The notes: generated from the letters alone by a model not told the origin. Shown: positions 20,921 to 56,478, counted from the stretch's first letter. The stretch: DNA of 64,000 nucleotides from Nitrospiria bacterium (GCA_919902495.1 CAKKRC010000012.1:71865-135864), one strand, 5' to 3'. Made by a program: numbers and translations.

Positions 20921-21054
20921 GCACCAGCAGCAAAAGGAAGGGATGAACAGATCGAAAAGGCGGGGAATTCTCCCCGCCTTTTGTTTACGTACTGACCGTT
21001 CTTTCACCCAGCAAAAAATCTGTACACCAGGCTCGGTCGTCGATAGCTAAGCAC

Positions 21055-27409: not shown

Positions 27410-27513
27410 GTTATTATAAATACAGTGGAGAACGACGATGAAGGTGATCCGGGCGGTTGTCCCCGTGTCACCCCGTCCCCGTGTCTCCGTGTCAGGCAAT
27501 TATTCTTAACAAG

Positions 27514-27863: not shown

Positions 27864-28191
27864 TAACTATTTGATATTGCTGTGTTATTTTGATTTTTTC
27901 CGAAAGCCTCCATTGAACTCATTCGGAGATCAGAGCTAAGTCCTTAAAGGATTTAGCTCTTTTTTTGTTTTCCAGCATGCACAGGTTTGGGGTACTTTTG
28001 GGGGTAAGTTGAAATTACCGATTTTCTAATAGTTGCAGTAATTCATGCGATTGGACAAACTGTTCAATGGCGTTCTTTGAATTCAAACACAGGACAAGGC
28101 AGCGGTACTTATAGAGAGTATTTGTCGCTTGTCATCGTGTAATGAATCATGCTATTCTACATACAGACTGATTCATTGATTTTATTATAAT

Positions 28192-28656: not shown

Positions 28657-28867
28657 AACACAGCAGAAAAACCTGAGCGGTTATGCGTTGAGAGATGCAG
28701 GCTGGGAGGCATTGGTAAATAATCTCGGTCTGATCAATGCAACACGATTCATAATGCAGTCTGAAACTGGATACGGAGATTACGCGAAAATCAGGAAAGG
28801 TGCCGTAAAGGGTAAACGCGTCGCCGATCTATATAAAGAGATAGTCCTGTTCGAGAAGAAGCATTAG
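28649..28867 (+). CDS. small hypothetical protein overlapping the PIN gene stop
   Basis: 72 aa ORF, 8-nt overlap with upstream gene; no recognisable motif. Confidence 0.3.
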   Translation: MLRTQQKNLSGYALRDAGWEALVNNLGLINATRFIMQSETGYGDYAKIRKGAVKGKRVADLYKEIVLFEKKH

Positions 28868-29014
28868 TAAGGTGCGGTTTCCTGCACGACTTTATTGATC
28901 ATGTCCGACAAGGTCGAGCGCCTCGCCTTGACCACGTATCCTCTTCTCGACACTCTGCGTCGCCTCCTTCCTCCTGTTCGTGGTGCCCTTGCCATTCCTT
29001 GATTTGGAGAATCG

Positions 29015-31414
29015 ATGTCTGACAAGAAAGCACTTCTCCAGGCCATAGCAAAAGAAGAAGCCCGGCTTTCGAGGTTGGACGGTGAACGCGAACAGGCGCT
29101 TTCAAGGCTCAATTCCCTCAAACATCAACTTGCCGCGCTGGAAGCAGCATGCGTTGAGCCATCGATAACCTACGCTTCCAGAACACCGCAGGAAAAAGTG
29201 TCATTGTTCCGCTCGCTATTTCGGGGGAGGGAGGATATCTTCCCGAAGTTATGGACGAGCCGTGCCGGCAAGAAAGGTTATTCTCCCGCCTGCTCGAATG
29301 ATTGGATCTCCGGCACGTGCGGAAAGACGCACAAACCGCCGGTAAAATGCAGCGAATGCTCCAATCGTAAATTCCTTCCAGTAACCGACCAGGTTATCAC
29401 GGATCATCTCCAGGGGCGTCACGTAATCGGCGTTTACCCAATGCTGCCTGACGATACCTGCTGGTTTCTTGCCGCTGACTTCGATAAAGAAACATGGATG
29501 GACGACGTCAGCGCCTTCCGTGAAACCTGTAAGAGTATGAATATCCCCGTGGTTGTCGAGCGTTCGCGTTCGGGAAACGGAGCGCACGCATGGTTTTTCT
29601 TTACTGAACCTGTGGCGGCAGCTACAGCGCGAACTATCGGATGTTACCTGATCACGGAAACCATGAGCCGGCGTCACCAACTCAGCATGGAATCCTACGA
29701 CCGGTTGTTTCCCAGCCAGGATACGCTGACCAAGGGCGGATTTGGGAATCTGATCGCACTGCCGTTTCAGCAGGAACCACGACAAAAGGGCAATACCGTG
29801 TTTTTGGATGAGAGTTTTACGCCTTATGAAGATCAATGGGCGTATCTGGCCTCGATCGAACGACTGTCTCCGAATGTCGTCCAACAGATCGCCAATGAAG
29901 CAATACGGCAGGGCGACGTGCTCGGGTTGCCCAGAGATTCCGAGGCAGAAAGTGACGATCAGGCACCATGGAACCGTACACCATCGCGTAAAAAACCGCT
30001 AAAGAAAATCAGCGGGAAATTTCCAACTGAAACGCACGGTGTTTTTGCTCAACGTCTGTTTGTCGAGAAGAAGGATTTGCCATCATCTTTTTTGACCCGC
30101 ATCAAACGGTTAGCTTCGTTTCAAAATCCGATGTTTTATGAGAAACAAAACTTGCGTCTCTCAACGGCCCGGATACCGCGTGTGATTTCCTGCTTTGAAG
30201 AGCTTCCCGAACATATTGCTGTCCCGAGAGGCTGTTTCGACAGACTTCAAGAGCTATTCGTGGAGCATGGTGTGAAACTCGTGCTCGATGACAAACGAAT
30301 TGCGCTGCCAGGACCATCTTATTCCTTTCAGGGAACGCTGAGAGAAGCGCAGCAAGAAGCCATCGACGAGATCCTTCATTACGATCTCGGCGTTCTATCC
30401 GCGCCGCCGGGATTTGGCAAGACCGTTATCGGCGCGTATCTCATTGCAAAACGCAGCTGTAGTACACTCGTACTCGTTCATCGAAAGGAATTGTTAGACC
30501 AATGGATCGCAAGGCTTTCCCTCTTTCTCGGAATTGATCCGAAAGAAATCGGCAAGATCGGGTCAGGCAAGAACAAGCCGAACGGGAGGTTGGATGTTGC
30601 GATGATCCAGAGCCTTGTCCGCAAAGACGAAGTTAGCGATCTGGTGGCCAACTATGGTCAGGTGATAGTGGATGAATGCCATCATCTCCCCGCTGTTTCC
30701 TTTGAGCGTGTCTTGAACGAGGTGAAAGCACGATACGTTGTCGGTTTGACGGCAACGCCGTATCGACGGGACGGGCACCAGCCGATCATTCACATGCAGT
30801 GTGGACCAGTCCGCTTTTCCGTTCATCCAAAAAGCCAAGATGCAAGATCGCAGTTCAAGCACCAGTTGATCTGCAGAACAACTGAATTTACCATGGAGAA
30901 TCCTGATGCCGCGATTCAGGACATTTTCGCAAATGTCGTTAACGACAAGATGCGAAACGCTCTTATTCTTGCTGATGTAAGGCAGGCGCTCAAGGAGGGA
31001 AGATTCCCGGTGCTTCTGACTGAGCGGAAAGAGCATTTGGACCTCCTCGCGGTCGGTTTACGAGATGATGTGAAGCACCTTATCGTTTTAAGCGGCAGAC
31101 TGTCAGCTAAAGAGCGGCGTGAAACCATGGCAAGACTCGCGGCAATTCCGGAAGGCGAAGTGCGACTCATTGCGGCAACTGGTCGTTACCTTGGAGAGGG
31201 CTTCGATGATCCCCAGCTTGATACATTGATTCTGGCAATGCCGTTTTCCTGGAAAGGTACCATCGTACAGTATGCGGGCAGGCTCCACCGGGAACATCCG
31301 GGGAAGCATGAAGTTCGAGTGTACGATTATATCGATGTCAAAGTGCCAAAGTTGTTTCGGATGCACAAGAAGAGGCTTCGCGGTTTCCGAGATATCGGAT
31401 ATATAATGGAATAA
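29015..31414 (+). CDS. archaeo-eukaryotic primase (PrimPol-like) - SF2 helicase fusion protein
   Basis: N-term coiled coil, Zn-ribbon CxxC..CxxC, AEP motifs (WFLAADFDKE; SGNGAHAWFFF); C-term helicase Walker A APPGFGKT, DECHH box, GLTATP motif III. Confidence 0.8.
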   Translation: MSDKKALLQAIAKEEARLSRLDGEREQALSRLNSLKHQLAALEAACVEPSITYASRTPQEKVSLFRSLFRGREDIFPKLWTSRAGKKGYSPACSNDWISGTCGKTHKPPVKCSECSNRKFLPVTDQVITDHLQGRHVIGVYPMLPDDTCWFLAADFDKETWMDDVSAFRETCKSMNIPVVVERSRSGNGAHAWFFFTEPVAAATARTIGCYLITETMSRRHQLSMESYDRLFPSQDTLTKGGFGNLIALPFQQEPRQKGNTVFLDESFTPYEDQWAYLASIERLSPNVVQQIANEAIRQGDVLGLPRDSEAESDDQAPWNRTPSRKKPLKKISGKFPTETHGVFAQRLFVEKKDLPSSFLTRIKRLASFQNPMFYEKQNLRLSTARIPRVISCFEELPEHIAVPRGCFDRLQELFVEHGVKLVLDDKRIALPGPSYSFQGTLREAQQEAIDEILHYDLGVLSAPPGFGKTVIGAYLIAKRSCSTLVLVHRKELLDQWIARLSLFLGIDPKEIGKIGSGKNKPNGRLDVAMIQSLVRKDEVSDLVANYGQVIVDECHHLPAVSFERVLNEVKARYVVGLTATPYRRDGHQPIIHMQCGPVRFSVHPKSQDARSQFKHQLICRTTEFTMENPDAAIQDIFANVVNDKMRNALILADVRQALKEGRFPVLLTERKEHLDLLAVGLRDDVKHLIVLSGRLSAKERRETMARLAAIPEGEVRLIAATGRYLGEGFDDPQLDTLILAMPFSWKGTIVQYAGRLHREHPGKHEVRVYDYIDVKVPKLFRMHKKRLRGFRDIGYIME

Positions 31415-37945: not shown

Positions 37946-39967
37946 ATGGATATTCTCTTGAATCTCGTCAGCGTTATATCAGTCGGTGGAACGATCATAG
38001 GAATATTCACCATGATCCTGGTATATCAATCCGTTGTCATTGTCGGCGGCAGCGAGATCGCGCTTATTGAACGGCGATGGTTCGGCAAGAAGATGCCGCA
38101 GGGCCGGGTTGTTGCCATGAACGATGAGGTCGGCATTCAGGCAAGGACCCTTGGCCCGGGAATGCACTTTCTCATTCCCTTTATTTACACGGCACGAAAG
38201 AGCGAATTCACGGAAATTATGGATGGAAAGATCGGACTTATCGAATCCGTCGACGGCAGCTCGATCCCTCCCGGTAAGATATTCGCGAAAGTGATACAGG
38301 GACATAATTCATTTCAGGATGGAGTTGCGTTCTTGCAGAACGGGGGCCAGAAAGGTCCGCAGATCGATATTATCCCTCCCGGTAAATACAGGATCAATCC
38401 CTACCTCTTTAAAATATCCATTGCCGACGCGGTTGTCATCAAGAAGGGCCAGGTGGGCGTTGTTATATCGCAGGACGGCAATCCTATTGCTTCCGGACGG
38501 CTTTTAGCAACCAGTGTGCCTGACCATCATAACTTCGAAGATGGCGAAAAGTTCCTTGCGAACGGAGGGCAAAAGGGCCCGCAGATCGAAATTCTTCTGC
38601 CGGGAACCTATCGTATCAATCTGAATCTATTCCAGGTATCACCTGAGCCGGCCGCGGTCATTGATTCGGCCAAAGTCGGCCTGGTTACCGCCAAGGACGG
38701 CAATCCGCTTCCCGACAAAGAATATGTCGCCCATTCAGTGCCCGGACACTCCGATTTTCAGGATGCCAATGCATTTCTCAAAGGCGGCGGAGAACGCGGA
38801 CCACAGCTCGATGTGCTTAAGCCCGGCACCTATTATATAAACCCGTTAATGTTCAATATCGCGTTTGATGATGTTGCCGTTGTCGAGCGCGGACAGGTCG
38901 CGGTCGTCGTTTCGAACGTCGGTGATGAGCCGACGCCTGACATGAAGAAGAGGCTCGGGTCCACCCAGATGGGGGCGACCGAGGAGGAAGGGAAAGAGAA
39001 ATATGTGGTCCCCAAAGGATATCGCGGCATCCAGGAAGAAGTAGCCGGCCCCGGCAGATACTATCTTAACCGGCTGGCCTTCATGCCCTATATCATCGAC
39101 ACGACGAACATAACGATAGACTGGGACGATTCAAAAGAGACAAAGTTCAATGCTTTGAACGTCGTCTCCAAGGACGGATTCAACATCGGTGTTTCGGTCA
39201 AGGTCGTTGTTCGTGTACGGCCGGACCAGGCGCCCTACATGGTATCGAAGGTCGGTTCCATCGACAACCTGATCCTTCATGTGATTCACCCCATGATCGA
39301 TTCCAGCTTCAGGAACCAGGCTTCCACAACGTCCGCGATGAATTTCATGCAGGACAGGCAGGAAGAACAGACAAAGGCTGAATCAAGGGCACGGCTTGAG
39401 CTTGAAAAGTATCATGTCGAGTGCGTCTCCGTTCTTATCTGCCAGATCATGCTGCCCCAGGAGCTGATGGATACGCAGACGAAGAAGATCATCGCGCAGC
39501 AGCAGACCACCCAGTTCCAGGAAGAACAGAAGGCCCAGGTAACAAGGATCGAGATGGAAAAGACCAAGGCGACCGCGGACCAGCAGCCTGAACTTGTCCG
39601 GGCGGAGATCGCCGTCAAGGTTGCCGATCAGAAGAAACGGGAAACCGTTACCCTCGCCGAAGGAAATGCGGAAAGCGCGAGACTTAAGGGCGAAGGCGAT
39701 GCAAAGGCGATCGAATCGATCGGCACGGCCACAGCGGAAGCTTATGAAAAACAAAAGACCGCCATCGGGTCGCAAGCTATCATGGCGATCGAGCTCGCAA
39801 AACATATCTCCGCGGGCAAGGTCAAGATCATGCCGGATATCCTCACGATCGGGGGCAACGGCGCAGCTGAAGGTCTCGCTACGGTACTAACGCAGGCTAT
39901 TGCGCTCAGTGGCATGAAGCTGGATCCCGGCGGAAAGGCTGCCATAAATAAGACAGCTGACGCATAG
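37946..39967 (+). CDS. flotillin-family (SPFH/band 7) membrane protein with three internal about 70-aa repeats
   Basis: N-terminal TM, SPFH region, C-terminal Q/E/K/A-rich coiled coil; three repeated NGGQKGPQI...PGxYRIN modules. Confidence 0.75.
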   Translation: MDILLNLVSVISVGGTIIGIFTMILVYQSVVIVGGSEIALIERRWFGKKMPQGRVVAMNDEVGIQARTLGPGMHFLIPFIYTARKSEFTEIMDGKIGLIESVDGSSIPPGKIFAKVIQGHNSFQDGVAFLQNGGQKGPQIDIIPPGKYRINPYLFKISIADAVVIKKGQVGVVISQDGNPIASGRLLATSVPDHHNFEDGEKFLANGGQKGPQIEILLPGTYRINLNLFQVSPEPAAVIDSAKVGLVTAKDGNPLPDKEYVAHSVPGHSDFQDANAFLKGGGERGPQLDVLKPGTYYINPLMFNIAFDDVAVVERGQVAVVVSNVGDEPTPDMKKRLGSTQMGATEEEGKEKYVVPKGYRGIQEEVAGPGRYYLNRLAFMPYIIDTTNITIDWDDSKETKFNALNVVSKDGFNIGVSVKVVVRVRPDQAPYMVSKVGSIDNLILHVIHPMIDSSFRNQASTTSAMNFMQDRQEEQTKAESRARLELEKYHVECVSVLICQIMLPQELMDTQTKKIIAQQQTTQFQEEQKAQVTRIEMEKTKATADQQPELVRAEIAVKVADQKKRETVTLAEGNAESARLKGEGDAKAIESIGTATAEAYEKQKTAIGSQAIMAIELAKHISAGKVKIMPDILTIGGNGAAEGLATVLTQAIALSGMKLDPGGKAAINKTADA

Positions 39968-40222
39968 TCATAGTGTAGAATCCTGTTTGAAGCTTTTAGT
40001 CAAATCAACTTTTTGTCTCTTGCTCAAGAGAGGATCACGAACTGAGTGTTAGTTATCATGACATCGATATTGACGATAACTTATACGCGACCCAGCTTCC
40101 GCGTGCGGTCGGGCAGAATTCCTGCAGGCTGGTAAAGAACGGAATTTCATGTTTTACTAGCCGGAGACGGCTAGGCAAGTACTGGTTAGTCCTGATCAAT
40201 TGAGAGCCTTACCTGAGGGCCA

Positions 40223-40702
40223 ATGACAAACCGATATCTAAAAGCGATCAAAGACATTCTGCCTGTTCGCAGGCCAAAACTTTTCGATTTTAATATTGCT
40301 GGACTGGATGACCATGTAAAGATGGCTGATGCCTCTTTAAAAGAATCCGAAGAAGCTAAAATAATTATCCGCGATTTCACAGGCAATACTAATCAGGAAA
40401 TTGATAAGCTCGACAACGAAAGTGACATTAGAAAGAAGCAACTCAACAAAACCACCATCGCAAATCAAATAATCGCCAAACTTAACGAACTCCATGAAAT
40501 AGGCAAAAGAAATGTTATTTACAAAACTGATTACTGGATCTTGAAGCAAAAACTAATATTAACATTGGCTCGTTTGTTCGGCTCGTCATTAGATAGGGAA
40601 ATTTTTGAGAAAACCGTCCAAACATTGGAGAAGGATGGAATAATTCCGCCAGAATCAAGAACGCCATTTGCAAAGCTTTGTCCAATGGGCCGCTGGTTGT
40701 AA
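40223..40702 (+). CDS. hypothetical protein
   Basis: 159 aa ORF in island, no recognisable motif. Confidence 0.35.
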   Translation: MTNRYLKAIKDILPVRRPKLFDFNIAGLDDHVKMADASLKESEEAKIIIRDFTGNTNQEIDKLDNESDIRKKQLNKTTIANQIIAKLNELHEIGKRNVIYKTDYWILKQKLILTLARLFGSSLDREIFEKTVQTLEKDGIIPPESRTPFAKLCPMGRWL

Positions 40703-40816
40703 GTGGTATATGACGAGAATTCTAACGAGGCGGGTCGAGACCGCCGCGAAAAACACGCGGCTCACCCGCGTGTTAGTTCTGTAAAGATAAAGCATAAGTA
40801 ATGAAGGGAGATACTA

Positions 40817-41740
40817 GTGACTGCCTTAATATTTATTGATACAAATATTCTCCTTGACTTCTATCGCTATCCGCAAGGAAGCGCCGTACTTTCCATTCTT
40901 AAACATATCGACGCTAACCACGATAAAATCATTTCAGGTAATCAAGTCGAAATGGAATTCAAAAAGAATCGCCAAAAGGTGATCATGGAAGCGCTTGACT
41001 CGCTTAAAGGGCCACGATGGGAGACGTTCAAGATTCCTGTCATTCTGTCAGAGGCACAACCAGCTCAAATTATTTCAAAGAGTAGAAAAGAAATTGAGAC
41101 ACAGTCGATTAAGCTTCAGAAGCGTATTGATGCCGTATTACGAAATCCAGCTCAACATGATGATGTATATCAGACCGTGCAACGTCTATTCCGAAATAAC
41201 TCAGCACTTAATCTGACAAGAGATAATAAAATACGATTCACAATAAGGAGACTCGCGTGGAAGCGTTTTGTCCTTGGATATCCGCCACGAAAACCCAGCG
41301 ATACATCACTTGGTGATCCGATTAACTGGGAATGGTTAATTCATTGCGCAAAAGCTACAAATAAAAATGTAATAATCGTTTCGCGTGACTCTGATTATGG
41401 TTATAGATATGGCAAGGAACCAATTATCAATGATTGGCTTTTGCAGGAATTTAAAGACCGCGTTAGTCGCAAAAAGAAAGTGATACTTACAAATCGCCTT
41501 ACTCATGCGTTTGAAATAGCCAAGGTTACGATTAAGCCGCGGGAGGTTTCTGATGAAAATAAATTAATCAATGAGATGACGGATATTAATAAAGCAAGTG
41601 CGTCATTGTCGCAGATATTAATGCAAAGACTCGCATCTATCGACAAAACCGAAAATAATGACATTATCCGAAAATGGATAGAAAGCAAATGGGCAGTAGC
41701 AGACACCGAGGGTAAATCAAAGAAAACAGATGAAGAATAA
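40817..41740 (+). CDS. PIN-like domain protein
   Basis: N-terminal LIFIDTNILLDFY and later VIIVSRDSDYGY acidic clusters typical of PIN-like nucleases; 307 aa. Confidence 0.5.
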   Translation: MTALIFIDTNILLDFYRYPQGSAVLSILKHIDANHDKIISGNQVEMEFKKNRQKVIMEALDSLKGPRWETFKIPVILSEAQPAQIISKSRKEIETQSIKLQKRIDAVLRNPAQHDDVYQTVQRLFRNNSALNLTRDNKIRFTIRRLAWKRFVLGYPPRKPSDTSLGDPINWEWLIHCAKATNKNVIIVSRDSDYGYRYGKEPIINDWLLQEFKDRVSRKKKVILTNRLTHAFEIAKVTIKPREVSDENKLINEMTDINKASASLSQILMQRLASIDKTENNDIIRKWIESKWAVADTEGKSKKTDEE

Positions 41741-41821
41741 ATGAAGTTTTCTAACCTGTCAGACGCGCCAGCCTCGCTGTGCTCGGTGGCTCAGCCCCGG
41801 GGTTAGTTCGGAATAATTGTT

Positions 41822-42574
41822 ATGACATCACAATCAACTGAGGAATTGAAGCGCCACCTTACGGAGCACATCGAGTTCTTGAAGACGTCAGCAAAACTTT
41901 ACGACGATGGAGTGGTAGCAGAAGCTAAACGACTTGCTGTCTCCATTCGAGTCCTTGTTCACGATACAAATAATTCGAAGTCGCTCCTTGGTCAACTTGG
42001 AATGAAGGCTCAGCAATTTGTCGATACTACGTCTGAGCGCACGCGCAATGTTATTACGAGCTATTCAGGTTTAGTAGGGACTTTACTGCATCCCGGCCCG
42101 CCCGAATATGTGCCTAATCTTAATCGCGTACCATTTAAATTGGTACCATTTGAACAATGGTGGGAAGCACCAATTATCATTGATTTCAAGCAGCGTGCGA
42201 TCACCCGTAAGCGACTGATCCTAGCGGTATCGAACCAGGATGGGGGCGCACACGTAGACCCAGAATTAGATGATATCTACGCCGACTTATCGCGAGACAA
42301 CTCAATGAGTCGCCTGTACTCCTCTGGTGCTTCGTTGCAGCCACTTGTTGGTGTGGAGCATGCATCCGTTCGACAGGTTGCACATGAGCTGCTATGCACA
42401 CTCGATCAATCTTCCGCGCAGACCTCTAGGCAAAATAAAAAAGGATTGATCGTTGGCGGCTTCGAACTGCACTTTAGCGACGACGCGCCATCTCCGCCTG
42501 TCGGTAAGGTAGGTCGTAATGAGTCTTGCCCATGTGGTAGTGGCATGAAGTATAAGAAGTGCCACGGGAAGTAG
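41822..42574 (+). CDS. SEC-C metal-binding motif protein
   Basis: C-terminal GRNESCPCGSGMKYKKCHGK (SecA C-terminal Zn-binding motif); 250 aa. Confidence 0.6.
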   Translation: MTSQSTEELKRHLTEHIEFLKTSAKLYDDGVVAEAKRLAVSIRVLVHDTNNSKSLLGQLGMKAQQFVDTTSERTRNVITSYSGLVGTLLHPGPPEYVPNLNRVPFKLVPFEQWWEAPIIIDFKQRAITRKRLILAVSNQDGGAHVDPELDDIYADLSRDNSMSRLYSSGASLQPLVGVEHASVRQVAHELLCTLDQSSAQTSRQNKKGLIVGGFELHFSDDAPSPPVGKVGRNESCPCGSGMKYKKCHGK

Positions 42575-42676
42575 CAAGCCAAAGTTAAAATCGAGGACCA
42601 ACCTGCGCCTCGTCAGCGACGCGGCAAAGGCGGCGCGTGACGCGCTGGTTAGCTACTGTTTATTTTAGGAGCCCCT

Positions 42677-43639
42677 ATGTACTTTAATTCTGCAGACGAA
42701 CTAATCGATGCTTTCAATTTGAGAGACAACCCCGCTTATGAGCGCATAACTCCCTTGAGAGATTGCAAGGCAGGTTTCAGCGTGCAAAGAAGATATCCTG
42801 AAAGCATTCGATATCGCCCTCCAAAGTTGAAAAATGGGATCGATGATACAGTCACATTAACCCATGTGATTTATGAACACCCTGCAGAGGATAAGGCACA
42901 CATCGCTAGCCAATCAAGGATACCGCTTGTTGTCAGAATTGTTCGATTCAGCAGGTATACATCAACACACTTCGATTACAATTTTTCAGATGATAATTGC
43001 CCGACAAAGGAATCCGTCGAAAGAAGCAAATTGACGCCGCCACCAATTGAATTGACATATGAGAAGGCATTTTACTTTGATCACGATGACAACCATTTCC
43101 ACGATGAATCAGGGCGAACGCTTACTGGCAGAGAGATTCTCGAAAAAGCCTACAAGGATCACTGCGATACCGTTCACATTCTGAAAGGCCTTAAGATTAG
43201 GTTTAAGTTAAGAAGCCAGTCTTTTGGAATTGCCGTCCTAGATATCGTCGTACGCCAATTAACAAATATATTAAGCTCAATATTTGGAAGAACTCTGGAC
43301 GACTCTGACTCAATCTCGGTCTATCTTTCTGGATATAAAAGAGAGGACCTTAAGAAGTTGAGCACTGAGAGCCTCACCATATTTGAATACAGCACGTCCA
43401 GAAGAGTGATAATTCTGTTTTGCTTCTTGGCTGTATCAGGATTCACATGGTATTACTTTGCCGCCATCAATAATAAATATCTAAAGGCAATATTTGAGAA
43501 TAGTTTTTTAACCCTTACGTTCTCCATAGTGATTATCTGGTTTTTGGATGTCGTTGTGCCGGTTCTTATTTTCCGCTTGATTAATATGTTTATTAAGCTA
43601 AGAACAAAATTGACTCTCAAGTCCTTCAAGGTTTTTTAG
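42677..43639 (+). CDS. hypothetical membrane protein (soluble N-domain, C-terminal TM helices)
   Basis: 320 aa; hydrophobic helices in last about 90 residues. Confidence 0.4.
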   Translation: MYFNSADELIDAFNLRDNPAYERITPLRDCKAGFSVQRRYPESIRYRPPKLKNGIDDTVTLTHVIYEHPAEDKAHIASQSRIPLVVRIVRFSRYTSTHFDYNFSDDNCPTKESVERSKLTPPPIELTYEKAFYFDHDDNHFHDESGRTLTGREILEKAYKDHCDTVHILKGLKIRFKLRSQSFGIAVLDIVVRQLTNILSSIFGRTLDDSDSISVYLSGYKREDLKKLSTESLTIFEYSTSRRVIILFCFLAVSGFTWYYFAAINNKYLKAIFENSFLTLTFSIVIIWFLDVVVPVLIFRLINMFIKLRTKLTLKSFKVF

Positions 43640-43737
43640 CGCGCAAGATAGCGAACGATAATTTAACGCTAACATGACGTTCGAGAGGGACGGACAAATC
43701 ACCGCCCTTCAACTCGTCGTTGTAAGGAGGAACAACT

Positions 43738-44607
43738 ATGGATTTTACCAAATTCGAAACTCTTTCGATTAAACAGCATCCGGAATTAGACGAAAAATGG
43801 GTGCAGGCACGCATTTCTGAAGATCCGGCACTACTCGGACTTGGTGATGTCATTCTGAAGGATAAGGAACGCATACAACCAAGAGCTGGCCGACTGGATT
43901 TGCTCCTGCAAGAAGCGGAATCAAACAGAAGGTACGAAGTCGAAATTCAACTCGGTTCCGCAGACGAAAGCCACATTATTCGCACAATTGAATACTGGGA
44001 TATCGAACGGCGTCGCTTTCCACAGTATGAGCATACAGCAGTAATAGTCGCTGAGGACATCACAAGTCGTTTTCTTAATGTAATTAGCCTTTTTAATGGC
44101 ATGATCCCGCTTATAGCAATTCAAATGAAAGCCCTTAAAGCTGGAAACAGCGTCGGATTAGTATTCACAACAGTGGTAGACCAGATGGCGCTCGGTCTCG
44201 TCGATGAAGATGAAGAAGTTCAAGAAACAACAGACCGAACTTATTGGGAGCAGCGAGGCTCAAAAAAAACAGTCGCTGTCGCGGATGAATTGCTCGAACT
44301 TGTTCGCACTCACGACAAGGCTCTCGAACTGAAATATAACAAATTCTATATTGGATTAGCCAAAGATGGTCATCCTAGCAACTTTGTAACATTTAGACCC
44401 AAAAAAGGTTTCTTACGCTTTGAGCCTAGACTCAAGAGCACTACGGAAACACAAGAGTTCCTTGAATCAGCCGGACTAGATGTCATGGATTATGATAGTA
44501 GGTGGGGTCGCTATCGCATTCGTCTGCAGCCTGGTGATGTTGAAAAATACCGTAAGACGCTAAGCGACGTAATTGATCGGACATTCGCCGAAAGCAATAA
44601 AGAATGA
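43738..44607 (+). CDS. hypothetical protein, possible PD-(D/E)xK nuclease-like fold
   Basis: GRLDLLLQEAESNRRYEVEIQLG resembles D...E.E.K/Q restriction-endonuclease-like core. Confidence 0.35.
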   Translation: MDFTKFETLSIKQHPELDEKWVQARISEDPALLGLGDVILKDKERIQPRAGRLDLLLQEAESNRRYEVEIQLGSADESHIIRTIEYWDIERRRFPQYEHTAVIVAEDITSRFLNVISLFNGMIPLIAIQMKALKAGNSVGLVFTTVVDQMALGLVDEDEEVQETTDRTYWEQRGSKKTVAVADELLELVRTHDKALELKYNKFYIGLAKDGHPSNFVTFRPKKGFLRFEPRLKSTTETQEFLESAGLDVMDYDSRWGRYRIRLQPGDVEKYRKTLSDVIDRTFAESNKE

Positions 44608-44807
44608 CAAGACGAAACTTATGATCCAACCAGCGGGTCGAGCCCGACGCGCAGGGAACGCGCGTCACGCCCGCGCGTTCCAGTGTAAGTAACAACCAGA
44701 AGACTGCAAGGCTGTTGACAATGCGTCTTGTACACACTTGTAAGTGAAGCTGATGAATTCTAATCGACCAATACAATACTGATAAACTGTTTGAAATTTG
44801 CACTGTC

Positions 44808-45236
44808 ATATCCCTTGTCAACGCCCGCCGGATATAGTACGCTCTTCCTGCCGATACGATAACCTTCGCATTGCATCAGAATTTGACAACATGACCTCCT
44901 ATCCCATCGACACCATCCTTCCCGAGCTGAAGAAGGCCGTGCAAAGCGGCCCCTCGGTCATCGTCCATGCGCCGCCCGGCGCGGGGAAGACCACCCGCGT
45001 CCCGCTGGCGCTGCTCGATGTGATCCCGCAGGAGCAGGGACGCATCATCATGCTTGAGCCGCGGAGGATCGCGGCGGTCTCGGCTGCTCGCTGGATGGCG
45101 AGGACGCTGGGCGAGGAGGCGGGCGGGACCGTAGGATACGCCATCCGGTTCGACAGCAGGAGCTCCGCGAGGACGCGCATCGAGGTCGTCACCGAGGGCA
45201 TCCTGACCCGCCGCATCCAGGCAGATCCCGGGCTGC
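44808..45236 (+). repeat. direct repeat DR1: upstream region plus first 115 codons of hrpB
   Basis: about 93% identical to 46196-46624. Confidence 0.8.
44891..45236 (+). pseudogene. 5' fragment of ATP-dependent helicase hrpB
   Basis: MTSYPIDTILPELKKAVQSGPSVIVHAPPGAGKTT... matches intact HrpB N-terminus then diverges after RRIQADPGL. Confidence 0.8.
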
Positions 45237-45342
45237 TTCTGCAGTTGATGCGCAGAAAGATTGCGATATGCGCGGGAATAGGATATTATAACGTCAGGTA
45301 TTCGATGGCGGAAAAATGGATGCCTGCTCTGGTGAGAAAAAA

Positions 45343-45855
45343 ATGAAAATCGTCATTATCGCTGGGCCGAATGGGGCGGGAAAAACCACGTTTGCCAAAG
45401 AATTTCTCCCCAACGAAGCCAACTGCCCGGAGTTTATCAATGCTGATCTCATAGCAGCAGGATTGTCACCTTTCAAACCAGAGGCGGTGACAGCACGAGC
45501 CGGACGGCTTATGCTGGTGGAAATGGACGAGCGAGTGCGTCAACGACGCAGTTTCGCCTTTGAGACAACGCTGAGTGGCCATGCATATGTACGGAGAATA
45601 TCGAGATGGCTTTTGCTCGGTTATCATGTGAAGCTGATTTTTTTGAGCCTTCCGAGCGTCGACATGGCGGTTGCCCGCGTTGCTGCACGAGTAGCGCAGG
45701 GTGGCCACAATGTGCCTGAAGAAATCATCCGGCGAAGATTTAAAAGTGGTTTGCGCAACTTCGAGCTGGTTTATAAGAGCCTTGTGGATGCATGGGCATT
45801 GTATGATAACTCAGGCAGCATCCCAAAGCTGCTGGATTGGGGAGAAAAATCATGA
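45343..45855 (+). CDS. zeta-toxin-like / AAA-family P-loop kinase
   Basis: Walker A IAGPNGAGKTT, INAD motif, about 170 aa. Confidence 0.55.
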   Translation: MKIVIIAGPNGAGKTTFAKEFLPNEANCPEFINADLIAAGLSPFKPEAVTARAGRLMLVEMDERVRQRRSFAFETTLSGHAYVRRISRWLLLGYHVKLIFLSLPSVDMAVARVAARVAQGGHNVPEEIIRRRFKSGLRNFELVYKSLVDAWALYDNSGSIPKLLDWGEKS

Positions 45856-46028
45856 AGACTAAAAAAACACTGCCGAGGGATGTCGATCTTGCGGGCGCGG
45901 GCAAAGCGCTCAAGCGGGCTGCCAAGACGGCCCGAGAATTGTCTCAGAAGACCAACACACCCTTTTATGTTTACGAAGGCGGCAAAATTATCAATGCATT
46001 GAAACGCACAAAAAAATCAGCTGCTTAA
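45837..46028 (+). CDS. small basic protein overlapping the P-loop gene stop
   Basis: 63 aa, 19-nt overlap; K/R-rich. Confidence 0.3.
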   Translation: MGRKIMKTKKTLPRDVDLAGAGKALKRAAKTARELSQKTNTPFYVYEGGKIINALKRTKKSAA

Positions 46029-46195
46029 ACAAGCGCTCAATTCGCATCGTCAAAAAACGGGCTGCCATATGGCTTCGCATTCATGTGCAAGTCTAATCAA
46101 AAGGGCAGGACCCATGTCCTGATTGGGAACAGCCTGCTCTTCCCGTCACGATCCCTGCGCCACCGCCACCCCGAAGCGGCCTGCCGGGTTACCGT

Positions 46196-46624
46196 CATAT
46201 TCCTTGTCAACACCCTCCGGATATAGTACGCTCTTCCTGCCGACGCGATAACCTTCGCATTGCATCAGAATTTGACAACATGAACTCCTATCCCATCGAT
46301 ACCATCCTTCCCGAACTGAAGAAGGCCGTCCAGAACGGCCCCTCGGTCATCGTGCATGCGCCGCCCGGCGCGGGAAAGACCACCCGCGTGCCGCTTGCGC
46401 TGCTCGACGTCATCCCACGCGAGCAGGGCCGAATCATCATGCTCGAGCCGCGGAGGATCGCGGCGGTCTCGGCGGCGCGCTGGATGGCGAGGACGGTGGG
46501 AGAAGAAGTCGGCGGCACCGTCGGCTACGCGATCCGGTTCGACAGCAGAAGCTCCGCGAGGACCCGCATCGAGGTTGTCACCGAGGGCATCCTGACCCGC
46601 CGCATCCAGGTCGATCCCGGCCTC
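46196..46624 (+). repeat. direct repeat DR2 (native hrpB upstream region and 5' end)
   Basis: see DR1. Confidence 0.8.
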
Positions 46625-48808
46625 GCAGGCGTGGCCATGGTCATCTTCGATGAGTTCCACGAACGGAGCCTTCATGCCGACCTGGCCCTGGCGCTTGCCC
46701 TCGATGTCCGCAAGGGGTTGCGCCCTGACCTGAAGGTCCTCGTCATGTCCGCGACCATGGACACTGGCCCCATCGCCTCGCTCCTGGGAGACGCGGCCGT
46801 TGTCACTTCCACGGGAAAGGCCTTTCCCGTGGAAGAGCGCTATATGGCAGAAAGCACGCTTCCGGTCCACCGGCGCGTCGCTGCGGCGGTCCGGACCGCG
46901 CTCCGGGAGACCAGCGGCGACATCCTCGCGTTCCTGCCGGGCTCCGGGGAGATACGGTCCTGCGCCCGCGAGTTGCAGGAAGGGCTGGACCTCACCGAGG
47001 AGCGCATCGCCCTGCACCCGCTCTACGGCGATCTGCCGTTCGAGGAGCAGGAGCGGGCGATCCTGCCTTCCCGGGAGCGGCGAAAGATCGTGCTCGCCAC
47101 CAACATCGCCGAGACGAGCCTCACCATCGAGGGCGTGCATGTCGTCATCGACAGCGGCCTGACGCGCGGGCTCCGGTACGATCCCTCCACCGGCATGAAC
47201 CGGCTGGTGACGATGCCCGTGTCGCGCGCGGCCGCTGAGCAGCGCAAGGGCCGGGCGGGCCGCCTCGGGCCCGGTGTCTGCTACCGGCTCTACAGCCGCC
47301 ATGATCTGCAGGGCATGCCGCCGTTCGCACAGCCGGAGATCCTTGTGTCCGACCTTGCGCCTCTTGCCCTGGAGCTTGCGGCCTGGGGGGTGAAGGACCC
47401 GGCAACGCTGACCTGGCTCGATGTGCCGCCCGTGGCTGCGTGGGAGTCCGGTATCGGACTGCTTAAGGATTTAGGCGCCCTCGACCGTACGGGTTCGGTC
47501 ACACCGCAGGGACGGTCGATGGCCCGCCTTCCGCTCCATCCGAGGCTGGCCCGGTTGATGGTGCGGGCGGGGGAACTGGGATGTCTGCGCCTGGGCGCCG
47601 ACCTTGCGGCCATCCTCTCGGAGCGGGACATCTTCCGGCAGATCGGGGTTGAACGGGTCCACAACGAACGGGACGTATCGGAGCGGCTCGATATGCTGCG
47701 GCGATGGCGGAACGGAACGGAAACGAGCGGAGCGGCAAATCCCCAGGCGCTCCGGACCGTGGAGAGGACGGCGAGACAGCTCCTGTCCCTCGTCCCCGGA
47801 AGGCCGGAAGCCGCCGATCGCGTTCATGATGAGACCGAAATGATCAGCCGCCTTCTGCTCTGCGCCTTTCCGGACAGGATCTGCAAGCGCCGGGAGGAGG
47901 GGGGCGGGCGGTTCGTTCTGGTCCAGGGAAGGGGCGTGCGCCTTTCGACCGACAGCGGCCTCGGCGCCAGTCCCTATATCATCGCGGTGAACCTGGACGC
48001 CGGCGAGAAGACGGAGGGCTTTGTCCATGTGGCCGCGCCGGTCACGGAAGAGCTTATCCGGAGCGAATGCGGCGGCCGCATCGAGACCGTCAGAAGGGTT
48101 GAATGGGACAGCAGGGCAGGCAGGATCGCGGCCGCCCTTGAAGAGCGGCTTGAGGCCTTGCTTTTGTCGCAGAGCCCGTTCAAGCCGTCCGACGAAGAGG
48201 CAGGCCCGATCCTGTGCGAAGCGATCCGGACAACGCCTGGGATACTGAGCTTCAGCAAAGATGCGCGCCAGCTCCAGGCGCGGGCAAGTATGATAAGAAA
48301 AGCGTTCCCCGAAGAGAGCTGGCCGGACCTGACCGATGAACAGCTCCTGTCCCATCCGGAAGAATGGATACTTCCCTGGCTTACCGACATCCGCAGCGCG
48401 CAAAGCCTTGGCAGCCTCAATGTACTTCCCGCGATGAAGGCGAAGCTGAACCGGGAACAGCAGCGGTTCCTGGAAGAACGGGCGCCTCTCGCGATCACGG
48501 TCCCGAGCAGCAGCCGTATAACGATCGACTATACCGCGGGAGACATCCCGGTCCTTGCGGTGAAGCTGCAGGAGATGTTCGGCTGCGCTGACACGCCGGT
48601 GATCGCGGGAGGCAGGGTGAAGGTCCTGCTGCACCTGTTGTCGCCGGCGCGTAGGCCGGTCCAGGTCACCCAGGACCTTAAGGGTTTTTGGAACAGCGGC
48701 TACGTGCTGGTGAAAAAAGACCTGAAGGGACGCTACCCCAGGCATCCCTGGCCCGACGATCCCTGGAACGCCGTGCCGACGCGCCGCGCGAAACCGCGGG
48801 GGACGTGA
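46280..48808 (+). CDS. hrpB: ATP-dependent RNA helicase HrpB (DEAH-box)
   Basis: 842 aa; GAGKTT, DEFHER, HrpB C-terminal domain. Confidence 0.9.
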   Translation: MNSYPIDTILPELKKAVQNGPSVIVHAPPGAGKTTRVPLALLDVIPREQGRIIMLEPRRIAAVSAARWMARTVGEEVGGTVGYAIRFDSRSSARTRIEVVTEGILTRRIQVDPGLAGVAMVIFDEFHERSLHADLALALALDVRKGLRPDLKVLVMSATMDTGPIASLLGDAAVVTSTGKAFPVEERYMAESTLPVHRRVAAAVRTALRETSGDILAFLPGSGEIRSCARELQEGLDLTEERIALHPLYGDLPFEEQERAILPSRERRKIVLATNIAETSLTIEGVHVVIDSGLTRGLRYDPSTGMNRLVTMPVSRAAAEQRKGRAGRLGPGVCYRLYSRHDLQGMPPFAQPEILVSDLAPLALELAAWGVKDPATLTWLDVPPVAAWESGIGLLKDLGALDRTGSVTPQGRSMARLPLHPRLARLMVRAGELGCLRLGADLAAILSERDIFRQIGVERVHNERDVSERLDMLRRWRNGTETSGAANPQALRTVERTARQLLSLVPGRPEAADRVHDETEMISRLLLCAFPDRICKRREEGGGRFVLVQGRGVRLSTDSGLGASPYIIAVNLDAGEKTEGFVHVAAPVTEELIRSECGGRIETVRRVEWDSRAGRIAAALEERLEALLLSQSPFKPSDEEAGPILCEAIRTTPGILSFSKDARQLQARASMIRKAFPEESWPDLTDEQLLSHPEEWILPWLTDIRSAQSLGSLNVLPAMKAKLNREQQRFLEERAPLAITVPSSSRITIDYTAGDIPVLAVKLQEMFGCADTPVIAGGRVKVLLHLLSPARRPVQVTQDLKGFWNSGYVLVKKDLKGRYPRHPWPDDPWNAVPTRRAKPRGT

Positions 48809-54426: not shown

Positions 54427-56478
54427 ATGAAAAAGACACAAAAGAAGTCGGAAGCAACTTCCTGGCAAGACGACGTTAAGCGTGTTGCTGCCGGCATCCG
54501 GCGGCGGGTGCTGGAGCATACGATCCGGAACAACGGCGGCTACCTTTCCCAGGCCTGCTCGTCGGCGGAGATCCTGGCGACCCTCTATGTGAAGGTGATG
54601 GACCTCGGGAAGATAAAAACGCCGCTTGTGCCGAAGCCCTTCCCCGGCGTGCCCGGCCCCGATAATCCGGATTACTTCACGGGTGCCGCCTTCAACGGCC
54701 CCGGCCCGGACAGGGACCGGTTCTTCCTCTCGCCCGCCCAGTATGCCCTCGTGCTGTATGCCGTCCTCATCGAGACGGGCCGCATGGCGGAGGAAGGCCT
54801 TGCCCAGTTCAACAAGGACGGCAGCGTCGTCGAGATGATCGGCGCCGAGCATTCCCCCGGCATGGAGACCATGACCGGCTCGCTGGGCCAGGGCATCAGC
54901 CAGGCCTCGGGCATCGCCATGGCGCGGAAGCGGAAGGGCGAGAAGGGCAGGGTCTTCATCTTCATGTCGGACGGCGAGTTCCAGATCGGCCAGACCTGGG
55001 AGGCGCTCCAGGCCTTGTCGTTCCACATGCTCGACAACGTGGTCATCTACGTGGACGTCAACGGGTTCCAATGCGACGGGAAGATGTGCAACGTCATGGA
55101 CGTGGAGCCGCTGGACAGGCGGCTCGAGGCCTTCGGCGCACGGGTCTTCCGGGTGAACGGCCACGACATCAAGAAGCTCGCGGACGCCGGTTCGGTCACG
55201 CCCGACGGCAGGCCCGTGGTCGTCCTGTGCGATACCGATGCGGCACGGGGCATTGAGGTGCTCAAGTCCCGCGCGCCCAAGATGCACTATGTCCGTTTCA
55301 CCAGCGTGGAGGAGAAGAGCTGGTACGCGGTGGCGCTCGAACAGCTCTGCGGTGCCAAGGCACACTTCACCCCACCCGTTGATAGAGACTCACCCTCTCC
55401 TTCCGTCCTCTCCCCTCTGAGGGAGAGGATAAGAGGTGAGGGGGGCATCATCTTCGGAGAGGGAAAAAGAGAAGGTCCGGAGATCGTCTCCCGCGTCCAT
55501 GCGAAGAACCTTGTCAAATGGGCCGCCGACAAGCCGAAGGTTCTGGTGCTGTCAGCCGACCTCACCAGTTCCACCGAGATCGATATGTTCCGGGACGCCT
55601 ATCCCGACCGGTTCCTGTCCATGGGCATCGCAGAGCAGAACATGCTGAGCTGGGCCAGCGGACTGGCGCGGGAAGGGTTCATCCCTTTTGTCCACACCTT
55701 CGCGGTCTTTATATATAGAAGGGCGTTCGACCAGATCGCCATGTCCGTATCCTATCCCAACCTGCCGGTCAGGATGATCGGGTTCCTGCCGGGCATCACC
55801 ACGCCGGGCGGGGCGACCCACCAGGCGATCGAGGACGTTGCGGTGATGCGGGCGCTGCCGAACATGACGGTCCTCGACTGCGGCGACGCAACGGACGTGG
55901 AGTCCGTGCTCGATGTCATCGAGAAGATCAACGGCCCGGTGTATGTGCGCATGCTGCGGGGAGAGATCCCGCGGCTTTTCGCAACTCCCATGGAGTTCGG
56001 GAAGGCGCGGGTCGTCTCGGAAGGGAAGGACATCACCGTGCTCTCTTCCGGCATCATGACCGAAGAGGCCATGCGGGCAGTGCAGGTGCTCCAGAAACGG
56101 GGCCTGTCGGTCCAGCACATGCATATCTCGACGCTCAAGCCTTTTAACGACCAGACGGTCATGGACGCCATCGCCCGGTCGAAGTACGGTGTCATCACCA
56201 TGGAAAACCACACCATCGTCGGCGGGCTCGGCAGCATCATCGCCGAGCAGATGGCCGAGCGGGGCATGGACAGGAAGCTCGTACGCATTGGCCTCCGGGA
56301 CATCTATGCCCACGGCGCTAGCAGGAACTATCTCCTCAAGAAATACCGCATGGATGCCATGGCGCTGATCTCAGAGATCGAGGGACTTGTCGGAAAGAAG
56401 TTCGGCATCACCGAGGACGAGCTGAAGGAGACCTTCATCGCGGCGGTGCACAGTACGGCGAAAGCGGAAGCGCTGTAA
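54427..56478 (+). CDS. tkt: transketolase, N-terminal and C-terminal sections joined in one ORF through an in-frame hairpin-repeat insertion
   Basis: residues 1-318 match split-transketolase TPP-binding subunit, residues about 355-683 the C-terminal subunit; linker SPSPSVLSPLRERIRGEGGIIFGEGKREGP derives from repeat E5. Confidence 0.8.
   Translation: MKKTQKKSEATSWQDDVKRVAAGIRRRVLEHTIRNNGGYLSQACSSAEILATLYVKVMDLGKIKTPLVPKPFPGVPGPDNPDYFTGAAFNGPGPDRDRFFLSPAQYALVLYAVLIETGRMAEEGLAQFNKDGSVVEMIGAEHSPGMETMTGSLGQGISQASGIAMARKRKGEKGRVFIFMSDGEFQIGQTWEALQALSFHMLDNVVIYVDVNGFQCDGKMCNVMDVEPLDRRLEAFGARVFRVNGHDIKKLADAGSVTPDGRPVVVLCDTDAARGIEVLKSRAPKMHYVRFTSVEEKSWYAVALEQLCGAKAHFTPPVDRDSPSPSVLSPLRERIRGEGGIIFGEGKREGPEIVSRVHAKNLVKWAADKPKVLVLSADLTSSTEIDMFRDAYPDRFLSMGIAEQNMLSWASGLAREGFIPFVHTFAVFIYRRAFDQIAMSVSYPNLPVRMIGFLPGITTPGGATHQAIEDVAVMRALPNMTVLDCGDATDVESVLDVIEKINGPVYVRMLRGEIPRLFATPMEFGKARVVSEGKDITVLSSGIMTEEAMRAVQVLQKRGLSVQHMHISTLKPFNDQTVMDAIARSKYGVITMENHTIVGGLGSIIAEQMAERGMDRKLVRIGLRDIYAHGASRNYLLKKYRMDAMALISEIEGLVGKKFGITEDELKETFIAAVHSTAKAEAL
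55381..55480. repeat. GC-rich hairpin element copy E5 inside the transketolase ORF
   Basis: cctctcccctctgagggagaggataagaggtgaggggggcatcatcttcggagaggg. Confidence 0.8.

Follow-up and report, generated by a model that had tools for sequence, protein, structure and literature searches.

A zeta-like kinase cassette between direct repeats of the hrpB 5' region in a Nitrospiria bacterium and its possible spread by way of these repeats

In a stretch of 64,000 nucleotides from a Nitrospiria bacterium (GCA_919902495.1, CAKKRC010000012.1:71865-135864; the whole stretch is called the window below, and positions are counted from its first letter) the promoter region and the first 115 codons of hrpB (encoding a DEAH-box helicase) are present twice in direct orientation, and the two copies bracket a 954-bp cassette encoding a small P-loop kinase and a basic partner protein. 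From the comparison of sequences we propose, with about as much confidence as doubt, that the kinase cassette was inserted with a long target duplication and that the repeats then served as homology arms for its spread among relatives. The evidence for this comes from the mostly synonymous divergence between the hrpB copies, from the lower divergence of the cassette than of its flanks, and from repeat-flanked cassettes of the same family at other genes. The repeats, both hrpB reading frames, the cassette with its genes and promoter-like site, and the neighbouring AT-rich island all lie on the plus strand.

Results and discussion

The direct repeat at hrpB

The repeat comprises 435 bp that align without gaps and with 44 mismatches (89.9% identity), with copy A at 44801-45235, copy B at 46190-46624 and a start-to-start distance of 1389 bp. 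The first-pass annotation of the window had located the copies nearly correctly, with the left edge missed by a few bases and the register shifted by one, and had put their identity at about 93%, which the alignment corrects to the value given above. That a direct repeat of the hrpB 5' region is present was confirmed: blastn aligns the copies at 90.3% identity over 433 bp (E 1e-171), far beyond chance. The repeat occurs twice in the 64-kb window, without a third copy, and the longest identical runs between the copies are 34 and 38 bp. Its content had been described correctly as the upstream region plus the first 115 codons of hrpB, since each copy holds 90 bp 5' of the gene and codons 1-115, with the ATG at 44891 in copy A and at 46280 in copy B.

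Copy B is the beginning, with its promoter region, of an intact hrpB gene (46280-48808, 842 amino acids), the product of which is a full-length equivalog match to TIGR01970 (936.3 bits, cut-off 546, residues 5-841) and matches HrpB_C, DEAD, Helicase_C and HA2 of Pfam. Copy A consists of the promoter region (-90 to -1) and codons 1-115, and continues into a fusion open reading frame (ORF) of 151 amino acids, here called hrpB' (44891-45346), in which the HrpB N-terminus (115 amino acids, with the Walker A motif GAGKT) is followed by a tail of 36 amino acids encoded by the left end of the cassette. With Pfam DEAD the product of hrpB' scores just below the cut-off (E 1.3e-05, 25.5 bits vs 26). To the left of copy A a flank of about 60 bp (44741-44800) is common to lineage L126 and absent 5' of copy B. 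No known RNA families were found in 44.5-46.5 kb.

The same junction with an identical breakpoint was found in three more lineages, namely L087 (JGI) and L126 and L127 (ENA and Logan), which differ by 6-15%; L126 is collinear with the window over 44741-47958 (85.5% over 3271 bp), and the hrpB' fusion ORF is on record on 6 contigs. In addition, Logan unitigs from other samples match both junctions at 100%, for instance L001, which corresponds to 45192-46275 (5 samples), and L082 and L083, which end at 44886; unitigs stop only within the longest identical stretches of the repeats (34-38 bp). Because independent unitigs and the lineages L087, L126 and L127 share both junctions, the repeat structure is not an assembly artefact, which was the outcome that the first-pass annotation had named as fatal to its claim.

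The stop codon of hrpB' overlaps the ATG of the kinase gene, and we considered translational coupling of the two through this ATGA overlap. The tail after codon 115 is not conserved, however, being 36 amino acids in the window, 11 in L126 and 2 in L087. The coupling is probably fortuitous, since L087 has a 1-nt deletion followed by an early stop and L126 stops after 11 amino acids.

Substitution pattern of the upstream copy

Codon position 3 accounts for 31 of the 37 coding differences between the two copies (P = 4e-10 if an even distribution is expected, P = 7e-6 for a mixed expectation of 0.48), and 28 codon changes are synonymous against 6 nonsynonymous ones, giving a ratio of nonsynonymous to synonymous substitution rates (dN/dS) of 0.059 at a synonymous rate (dS) of 0.44. 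For a copy A that had drifted neutrally since a local duplication the expected dN/dS is about 0.5. As a control we used a duplicate of the hrpB 5' end around a different cargo in L043, which has a dN/dS of 0.51 and a mutated Walker A motif; the contrast between the window and this duplicate is significant (Fisher P = 0.004).

The same holds between lineages. Copy A of the window and copy A of L126 differ with a dN/dS of 0.145 at dS 0.43, those of the window and L087 with 0.048 at dS 0.445, and over all lineages compared the range for copy A is 0.05-0.15 at dS 0.43-0.69, without a single stop codon or indel; for copy B it is 0.14-0.19. Copy A of the window has practically no private amino-acid change, and we therefore bound its neutral phase to less than about 0.012 substitutions per site. 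In copy A of L126, 7 of the 16 private changes are at codon positions 1 and 2, including G20Y and A27S beside the Walker A motif. The informative sites across the copies group by genome in 13 cases, by paralog in 4 and crosswise in 3, without paralog clades, and the pairwise distances among the copies are star-like, all being similar (10-15%).

Because its differences from copy B and from the other upstream copies are overwhelmingly synonymous, copy A appears either to be under selection or to have served, until recently, as a functioning hrpB allele in a different lineage. The first-pass annotation had taken it for a pseudogene fused to unrelated sequence; truncation and fusion after codon 115 are indeed what is found, but a dN/dS of 0.05-0.15 does not fit a simple decaying pseudogene.

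The cassette between the copies

The cassette (45236-46189, 954 bp) fills the space between the repeats. In an unrelated flank, in L088, homology to it corresponds to 45241-46177, ending 5-12 bp from the inner edges of the repeats, which makes the cassette a discrete mobile unit with defined ends, the family of which occurs in many contexts. Its GC content is about 52%, that of hrpB about 67%. At its left end a consensus scan indicates a promoter-like site (TTGCGA-17 nt-TATTAT, 45261-45289), and the motif GATTGCGrTAT...GGGAATAGGATATTATA is conserved in five contexts (the window, L087, L088, L089 and L091).

The first gene (45343-45855) encodes a P-loop kinase of 170 amino acids that belongs to the zeta-toxin/AvrRxo1/polynucleotide-kinase fold group according to Pfam and Foldseek. 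In Pfam it matches AAA_33 (38.4 bits, cut-off 27) and, with residues 51-146, Zeta_toxin PF06414 (35.5 bits, cut-off 22.3). An AlphaFold2 (AF2) model (predicted local distance difference test score, pLDDT, 87.5) gave template-modelling (TM) scores of 0.80-0.81 to the zeta toxins 1gvn_B and 3q8x_B, 0.76 to AvrRxo1 (4z8q_A) and 0.68 to polynucleotide kinase (4jt2_B) in Foldseek, at sequence identities of 15-20%; judged by E-value, the structural match to polynucleotide kinase is just as good. Homologs of 170-174 amino acids, labelled 'zeta toxin family' or 'predicted ABC-type ATPase', number at least 8000. The kinase gene has a dN/dS of 0.04-0.11, and K14/T15/T16 (Walker A), D35, E74/T75/T76, R112, R116 and R132 are invariant in 25 homologs. 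Zeta toxins have as catalytic residues the lysine of Walker A, an Asp that acts as base behind the P-loop, and Glu and Arg residues for substrate and ATP binding (zeta D67, E116, R158 and R171).

The second gene (45852-46028) overlaps the kinase stop codon by ATGA and encodes a basic protein of 58 amino acids (15 K+R vs 4 D+E). The first-pass annotation was right that the copies enclose only a zeta/AAA-like P-loop kinase gene and a basic ORF, the latter being most likely 58 amino acids long from ATG 45852, not 63 from TTG 45837. The partner ORF is present and overlaps the kinase gene in the sampled contexts where it was called, and its dN/dS of 0-0.25 indicates purifying selection. It has no match in Pfam, NCBIfam or PADLOC, and none of its 17 close homologs is informatively named. 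For COG4185, and for zeta-like kinases followed by a partner gene, the literature yielded nothing specific.

The kinase and its partner may form a toxin-antidote or defence pair, as the fold and the gene order suggest. The cassette resembles the epsilon/zeta and PezAT systems (1gvn, 3q8x, 2p5t) in its P-loop phosphotransferase fold and in being a two-gene operon with a small partner. Unlike zeta and PezT (about 250-290 amino acids), its product is a minimal kinase core of 170 amino acids with an identity of 15-16%, and unlike in epsilon/zeta and PezAT there is no antitoxin of the epsilon/PezA type upstream of the kinase gene, where only the hrpB' fragment and the promoter-like site were found; the 58-residue partner matches no known family. 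Candidate substrates of the kinase are UNAG, NAD and polynucleotide ends. The lack of an upstream antitoxin and the minimal core mean that this is not a canonical epsilon/zeta system. The label zeta-toxin-like thus fits the fold and the Pfam match, and 'zeta toxin-antitoxin' describes a resemblance. In AvrRxo1 ORF1:ORF2 the partner gene comes after the kinase gene, and in this gene order, as in the TM score of 0.76 to 4z8q, the cassette is like AvrRxo1.

Neither of the two ORFs of the cassette encodes a recombinase, and no integrase was found among the neighbouring window ORFs checked. The ends of the cassette showed no attC-like structure (z = +0.6 and -0.4 for the two strands of 46029-46175 and -0.65 for 45236-45342), nor was an AAC...GTT site found in it; the kinase cassette as an integron cassette was ruled out, as there is no attC-like site. 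A phage origin is unlikely as well, with one distant match among 2.9 million viral contigs.

Divergence of the cassette and of its flanks

The divergence of the cassette (kinase and small ORF) was compared with that of each flank as the proportion of synonymous differences, and the P values refer to flank against cassette. Between the window and L126 this proportion is 0.146 for the cassette, 0.326 for copy A (P = 1e-3), 0.289 for the 5' part of hrpB in copy B (P = 8e-3) and 0.416 for the rest of hrpB (P = 3e-10); between the window and L087 it is 0.104 for the cassette and 0.333 for copy A (P = 3e-4). At synonymous sites the cassette is thus 2-4 times younger than the hrpB flanks. Between the window and L087 a sharp step lies at the junction, the non-coding left end of the cassette differing by 7.5% and the third positions of copy A by 25% (P = 2.5e-3).

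The same cassette family at other loci

Cassettes with a kinase 85-95% identical to that of the window occur at other repeat-bracketed targets. At the 5' end of yjbQ (L090, L091, L093) the cassette lies between repeats of 143 bp that begin at the start codon and are 88% identical; 13 of their 17 differences are at codon position 3, with a dN/dS of 0.07 at dS 0.57, and the truncated copy is a fragment of 47 amino acids. Just downstream of recQ (L088) it lies between repeats of 88 bp that are 83% identical; in L002 the gene directly upstream of hrpB is a recQ that shares 92% identity with this recQ of L088. Flanking repeats were absent from the cassette in L089, at the mobB-rpsF locus (L116-125) and in clusters of about 75% identity (L096-115), and the distant clusters without repeats are located among insertion sequence (IS) elements or beside HEPN/nucleotidyltransferase pairs. 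Flanking repeats are hence frequent in a sub-clade and not obligatory, and we reject them as a universal feature of the family.

Two kinds of variation were seen at these loci. At the junction of the yjbQ fragment and the kinase cassette an IS3-family element (HTH_Tnp_1, rve) is present in L090 (8548-9884) and L092 (1-124) and absent in L091 (9881-9884); this insertion is secondary, found in some population variants only, and a 4-bp overlap marks its site. At the mobB-rpsF locus the variants L118, L123 and L124 have, compared with L116, a kinase truncated to an ORF of 92 amino acids and an intact partner ORF.

Beside hrpB the cassette was not found in 80 other species. The window belongs to a Thermodesulfovibrionia-like member of the Nitrospirota, and L002 is the closest species-level genome (HrpB 91% identical). 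In L002 and in 79 further species the hrpB 5' region occurs once, and it aligns with both repeats. On the 5' side of hrpB the homology between L002 and the window sets in at 46192, the left edge of the repeat. L002 lacks the cassette and yet its hrpB is closer to that of the window (dS 0.39) than that of L126 is (dS 0.61), so the distribution of the cassette is patchy, which fits lateral spread or loss.

The only second hrpB 5' copy among the other species searched is that in L043 (Smithellaceae chromosome, OY820932.1), where a duplicate of about 235 bp (7762-7994 vs 9950-10194, 75-86% identical) brackets an ORF of 525 amino acids with TPR repeats, and where the upstream copy is visibly decaying (GSDKTT in place of GSGKTT in Walker A). 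In P0145, in P0240/P0237/P0256 and in P0257 (complete genome of Syntrophotalea acetylenivorans) ORFs for the HrpB N-terminus were seen that are truncated at other breakpoints. Given the L043 duplicate and these truncated ORFs in further clades, the hrpB 5' end seems to be a recurrent insertion site.

A possible route of insertion and spread

In the explanation that we favour the cassette would be a small selfish or defence-type module without a recombinase of its own. As a first step, which we infer, it would have entered the hrpB 5' region by what has been termed insertion with long target duplication, duplicating positions -90 to +345 and leaving an intact hrpB with its promoter downstream and the truncated hrpB' upstream. 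In a second step, which the sequence comparisons support, the structure would have moved among relatives that differ by 10-15% through homologous recombination of the host. Relative to a cassette-free genome the structure is a 1389-bp insertion in continuous hrpB homology, and RecA-type recombination could therefore move it, either by a double crossover of a linear fragment or by recombination between the repeats to give a 1389-bp circle that re-integrates in the Campbell manner. Crossovers inside the repeats would place the sequence of a working hrpB allele of the other lineage into copy A or copy B, and this would account for the allele-like divergence of the copies, for an open and seemingly fresh copy A, for the single breakpoint, the star-like distances, the younger cassette and its patchy distribution. 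If the cassette is addictive (toxin and antidote), cells without it that arise by recombination between the repeats would be eliminated, and the arrangement would thereby gain stability. Excision through the repeats, also suggested in the first-pass annotation, is plausible. The interpretation given there, an integration or duplication scar in which a toxin-antitoxin-like cassette was captured, is upheld as to a genuine insertion-duplication structure; the breakpoint shared by diverged lineages speaks against a recent and local scar.

Several observations weigh against this explanation. We found no convincing mosaic of near-identical blocks that would mark recent crossovers, the mismatches being evenly spread with one exception, a stretch in the final third of the L126 repeats that may reflect conversion, and we found no cassette-free allele that matches copy A (a 20-mer specific to copy A gave 3 chance matches without homology in metagenome contigs). 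No circle, tandem amplification, excision product or transfer vehicle was seen, in data that allowed no search for such products. Recombination across about 10% divergence is inefficient, and identical stretches between the copies reach no more than 34 and 38 bp. In the comparison of the window with L126, the non-coding ends of the cassette are about as diverged as the flanks, so that part of the low dS of the cassette may reflect coding constraint instead of youth. The sequence of L002 5' of position -88 is unrelated to the flanks of the window and does not provide a clean empty site. Finally, the making of the duplication in the first step is left unexplained, and a toxic cassette with an antidote is assumed from the fold and the gene order.

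Insertion with long target duplication has been described for restriction-modification genes (Nobusato et al. 2000, Gene 259:99; Furuta, Abe & Kobayashi 2010, PMC2853133). These units have target duplications of 30 to about 420 bp and no mobility genes, and in many cases their repeats extend across a start or stop codon, which leaves the target gene whole (PMC2853133). In a similar way, the unit described here is smaller than 20 kb (954 bp), lies between repeats longer than 30 bp, of which that of 435 bp spans the hrpB start and that of 143 bp begins at the yjbQ start codon, and has no transposase or integrase, nor was one found among the neighbouring ORFs checked. There are also clear differences. 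The repeats of restriction-modification units are near-identical (e.g. 417/423), more similar to one another than either is to the empty site (PMC2853133), whereas the repeats here are 83-90% identical and diverged like two functional alleles, and the structure is common to several diverged lineages. The cargo is a kinase and a 58-residue protein instead of restriction-modification genes, and DNA breakage by the cargo, which was suggested as the cause of the long target duplication (PMC2853133), can for that reason not be invoked. The same authors proposed a life cycle in which the repeats are used for amplification and release (PMC2853133). The literature that could be searched uses the term insertion with long target duplication for restriction-modification genes alone and not for toxin-antitoxin cassettes; new here are the kinase cargo and a repeat pair that consists of diverged functional alleles, not of a fresh duplicate.

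The proposed re-integration has a familiar counterpart. In a Campbell-type single crossover a circle that carries a 5' gene fragment gives a truncated copy, the insert and an intact copy, and the two copies differ by the divergence of donor and recipient. Examples of such homology-driven integration, a textbook process to which the homology-facilitated recombination of naturally transformable bacteria is related, come mostly from work with suicide vectors and from transformation in the laboratory, whereas here it would be the natural mode of propagation of a unit of 1.4 kb.

A wider form of the proposal, which we hold to be possible but doubtful, is that zeta-like kinase cassettes of about 1 kb are a recombinase-free type of mobile element, the sole mobility device of which is the pair of target-gene repeats made at the first insertion, with spread to relatives by host recombination and with addiction preventing loss. 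Such a cassette would either be excised as a small circle or be carried on a linear fragment, and would then integrate into the orthologous gene of a diverged relative. With every passage the upstream copy would be restored from a working allele, so that the apparent scar never decays. The movement of toxin-antitoxin and small defence cassettes is largely unexplained, as most of them carry no mobility genes, and the same repeat architecture is found for the kinase cassette at three independent targets (hrpB, yjbQ and recQ). A low dN/dS between copies A and B together with a cassette younger than its flanks is a signature that points to homologous recombination between diverged relatives. For annotation this implies that a truncated gene copy beside a small cassette is not necessarily a decaying pseudogene, and the dN/dS relative to the intact copy separates local duplication (L043, 0.51) from an imported allele (the window, 0.06). 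If the route is general, as the PIN, MazF and nucleotidyltransferase cassettes of L002 (see below) suggest, it would be a common and overlooked way for toxin-antitoxin and defence cassettes to enter chromosomal hotspots.

Other explanations have to be weighed against the spread of the cassette by way of its repeats. Selection could have kept hrpB' as a gene that arose once and was inherited vertically, its HrpB fragment (with Walker A and motifs Ia and Ib) acting as a regulator, a decoy or a third component of the module, and with the divergence of the cassette lowered by separate sweeps or constraint. This would agree with a dN/dS of copy A (0.05-0.15) as low as that of copy B (0.14-0.19), with the lack of stop codons and frameshifts in three lineages, with the conserved promoter part of copy A, with the co-inheritance of the 44741-44800 flank and the junction in L126, and with divergences compatible with a single duplication just before the radiation of these lineages. 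We nevertheless consider it improbable. Most contexts of the cassette do without hrpB' (L089, L116-125, L096-115), and the unrelated yjbQ fragment of 47 amino acids carries the same signature, while it is unlikely that both fragments are functional. Moreover, the tail after codon 115 is variable (36, 11 and 2 amino acids), copy A of L126 looks relaxed in its 7 of 16 private changes at positions 1 and 2, and a 115-residue piece of the RecA1 domain without motif II would be unlikely to fold alone.

Another possibility, to which we likewise give little credence, is that copy A is the right end of a segment imported from a related donor (Band7, the island, the native flank and the hrpB 5' region). 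This segment would have recombined homologously on its left and been joined illegitimately at the left end of a cassette already resident upstream of hrpB (homology-facilitated illegitimate recombination), so that a donor hrpB fragment was gained while the cassette stayed in place. The synonymous bias of the divergence shows that copy A derives from an allele that was functional in another lineage, variable segments are concentrated in a hotspot in the interval upstream, and L002 has similar, xenolog-like fragments of recQ and radical-SAM genes around other cassettes. However, the junction lies 5-7 bp from the left terminus of the cassette as defined in the unrelated flank of L088, and the cassette is flanked by repeats again at yjbQ and downstream of recQ, which argues that the repeats travel with the insertion of the cassette; a single event would also leave unexplained why the copies A of different lineages differ with a low dN/dS.

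Duplication in place (target duplication or unequal crossing-over) followed by neutral decay of an upstream pseudogene would produce a truncated upstream copy joined to unrelated sequence, and decaying hrpB duplicates such as that of L043 do exist. It is very unlikely here in view of the dN/dS of 0.059 against the expected value of about 0.5, the 31 of 37 differences at third positions, the lack of indels and near-lack of private amino-acid changes in copy A, and the contrast with L043 (P = 0.004).

We see no more reason to assume site-specific integration by a tyrosine recombinase, be it of an hrpB-targeting element with a replacement 5' end, of an integron cassette or of an island linked to transfer-messenger RNA (tmRNA). 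Fragments of the hrpB 5' end recur in several clades, the region immediately upstream contains an integron-like cassette array, a tmRNA gene is located 17 kb upstream, and three unrelated upstream sequences meet hrpB at the same base, at about -88. This boundary can also be explained by selection on the hrpB promoter, and the other hrpB' fragments break elsewhere, after TEGI, DEFHE or DPYLEG. Furthermore, the length of the repeats varies with the target (435, 143 and 88 bp), neither the cassette nor the window ORFs checked yielded an integrase, the ends of the cassette have no att-like core and no attC-like or significant structure (z about 0), and there is no repeat of the tmRNA 3' end.

An assembly artefact (a chimeric join of strains or a collapsed or expanded repeat) might be suspected in a window that probably comes from a metagenome-assembled genome and has copies diverged by 10%, like two strains, but is practically excluded by junctions that on both sides join non-homologous sequence, recur at 100% in unitigs (L001, 5 samples) and are conserved in three lineages from different studies, with the fusion ORF on 6 contigs.

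The neighbourhood of the repeat structure

Upstream of the repeat structure, and outside it, lies an AT-rich variable island (40186-44740, GC content 41-48%) with five co-directional ORFs, encoding a protein of 159 amino acids, a PIN_12 protein, a SEC-C-motif protein and proteins of 320 and 289 amino acids. The first-pass annotation had it abut the repeat, but about 60 bp (44741-44800) lie in between, and these are conserved together with the repeat structure in L126. Each ORF is followed by an attC-like, GC-rich imperfect palindrome of 58-60 nt, flanked at one end by (C/T)TAAC or CCAAC and at the opposite end by GTTAG or GTTRR; such sites are located at about 40134-40191, 40720-40778, 41749-41808, 42596-42654, 43667-43725 and 44624-44683. 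L126 has a different segment of 3.4 kb with other ORFs in place of 40189-44740, between the same flanks, and shares the 3' end of the Band7 gene (39773-40188), which makes the island an independent variable segment. The left boundary of this exchange falls in a GTTAG core at 40185-40189, and the spacers of L126 contain similar sites (e.g. 896-948).

The island, and not the kinase cassette, which carries no such site, thus resembles integron cassettes in its co-directional ORFs, its palindromes of 58-60 nt with AAC/GTT cores and its exchange at GTTAG, and may be an integron-type array, i.e. a cluster of attC sites without an integrase. It differs in that no integron integrase was found among the window ORFs checked and in that the consensus of the sites is approximate. 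A strict ungapped test for attC-like sites detected 1 of 5, so that this reading, which rests on inspection and folds, is only suggestive. The last ORF of the island (43738-44607, 289 amino acids, without a Pfam match) has a weak match in PADLOC to the candidate defence family PDC-S18 (E 9e-6).

L002 shares with the window the Fer4 and radical-SAM genes (34965-37503) and hrpB, and the interval between them differs. In this interval (2217-9135 of L002) toxin-antitoxin-type genes are bracketed by long direct repeats of core-gene fragments: two copies of the radical-SAM 3' end (2217-2514 and 4063-4426) enclose genes for PIN and MazF proteins, and genes for a PIN protein and a nucleotidyltransferase lie between an internal recQ fragment (4650-4998) and recQ (7064-8938), the matching part of which (7719-8065) is 93% identical, with 17 of 27 differences at third positions. 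The hotspot also contains a 245-bp tandem repeat (6564-7053) and a motif of 30 nt that occurs five times.

Further upstream in the window a tmRNA gene (27514-27863, tag ANNELAYAA) is followed by an ORF encoding a PIN-domain protein (28192-28656) and, in a low-GC patch, by a conflict-system gene (29015-31414) for a protein of 799 amino acids, a TOTE-type archaeo-eukaryotic primase fused to a superfamily-2 helicase. A tmRNA-linked island extending over 27.9-46.2 kb was ruled out, with no repeat of the ssrA 3' end in 27400-46700 and no integrase among the ORFs checked; the core genes between the tmRNA gene and hrpB (CdhD-like, Fer4, radical SAM and Band7) are syntenic with those of L002.

Other repeats in the window include a direct repeat of 306 bp (11002-11307 and 11388-11693, 81% identical, spaced by 386 bp) and dispersed intergenic repeats of 55-115 bp that occur in both orientations and are 80-90% identical (21049-21145, 35292-35388, 37606-37661 and 55386-55476). 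Dispersed repeats are also present at 14255-14461/21146-21540 and 33813-33922/53880-53990; they look like a small family akin to repetitive extragenic palindromic (REP) sequences or miniature inverted-repeat transposable elements (MITE), and related copies occur in L002.

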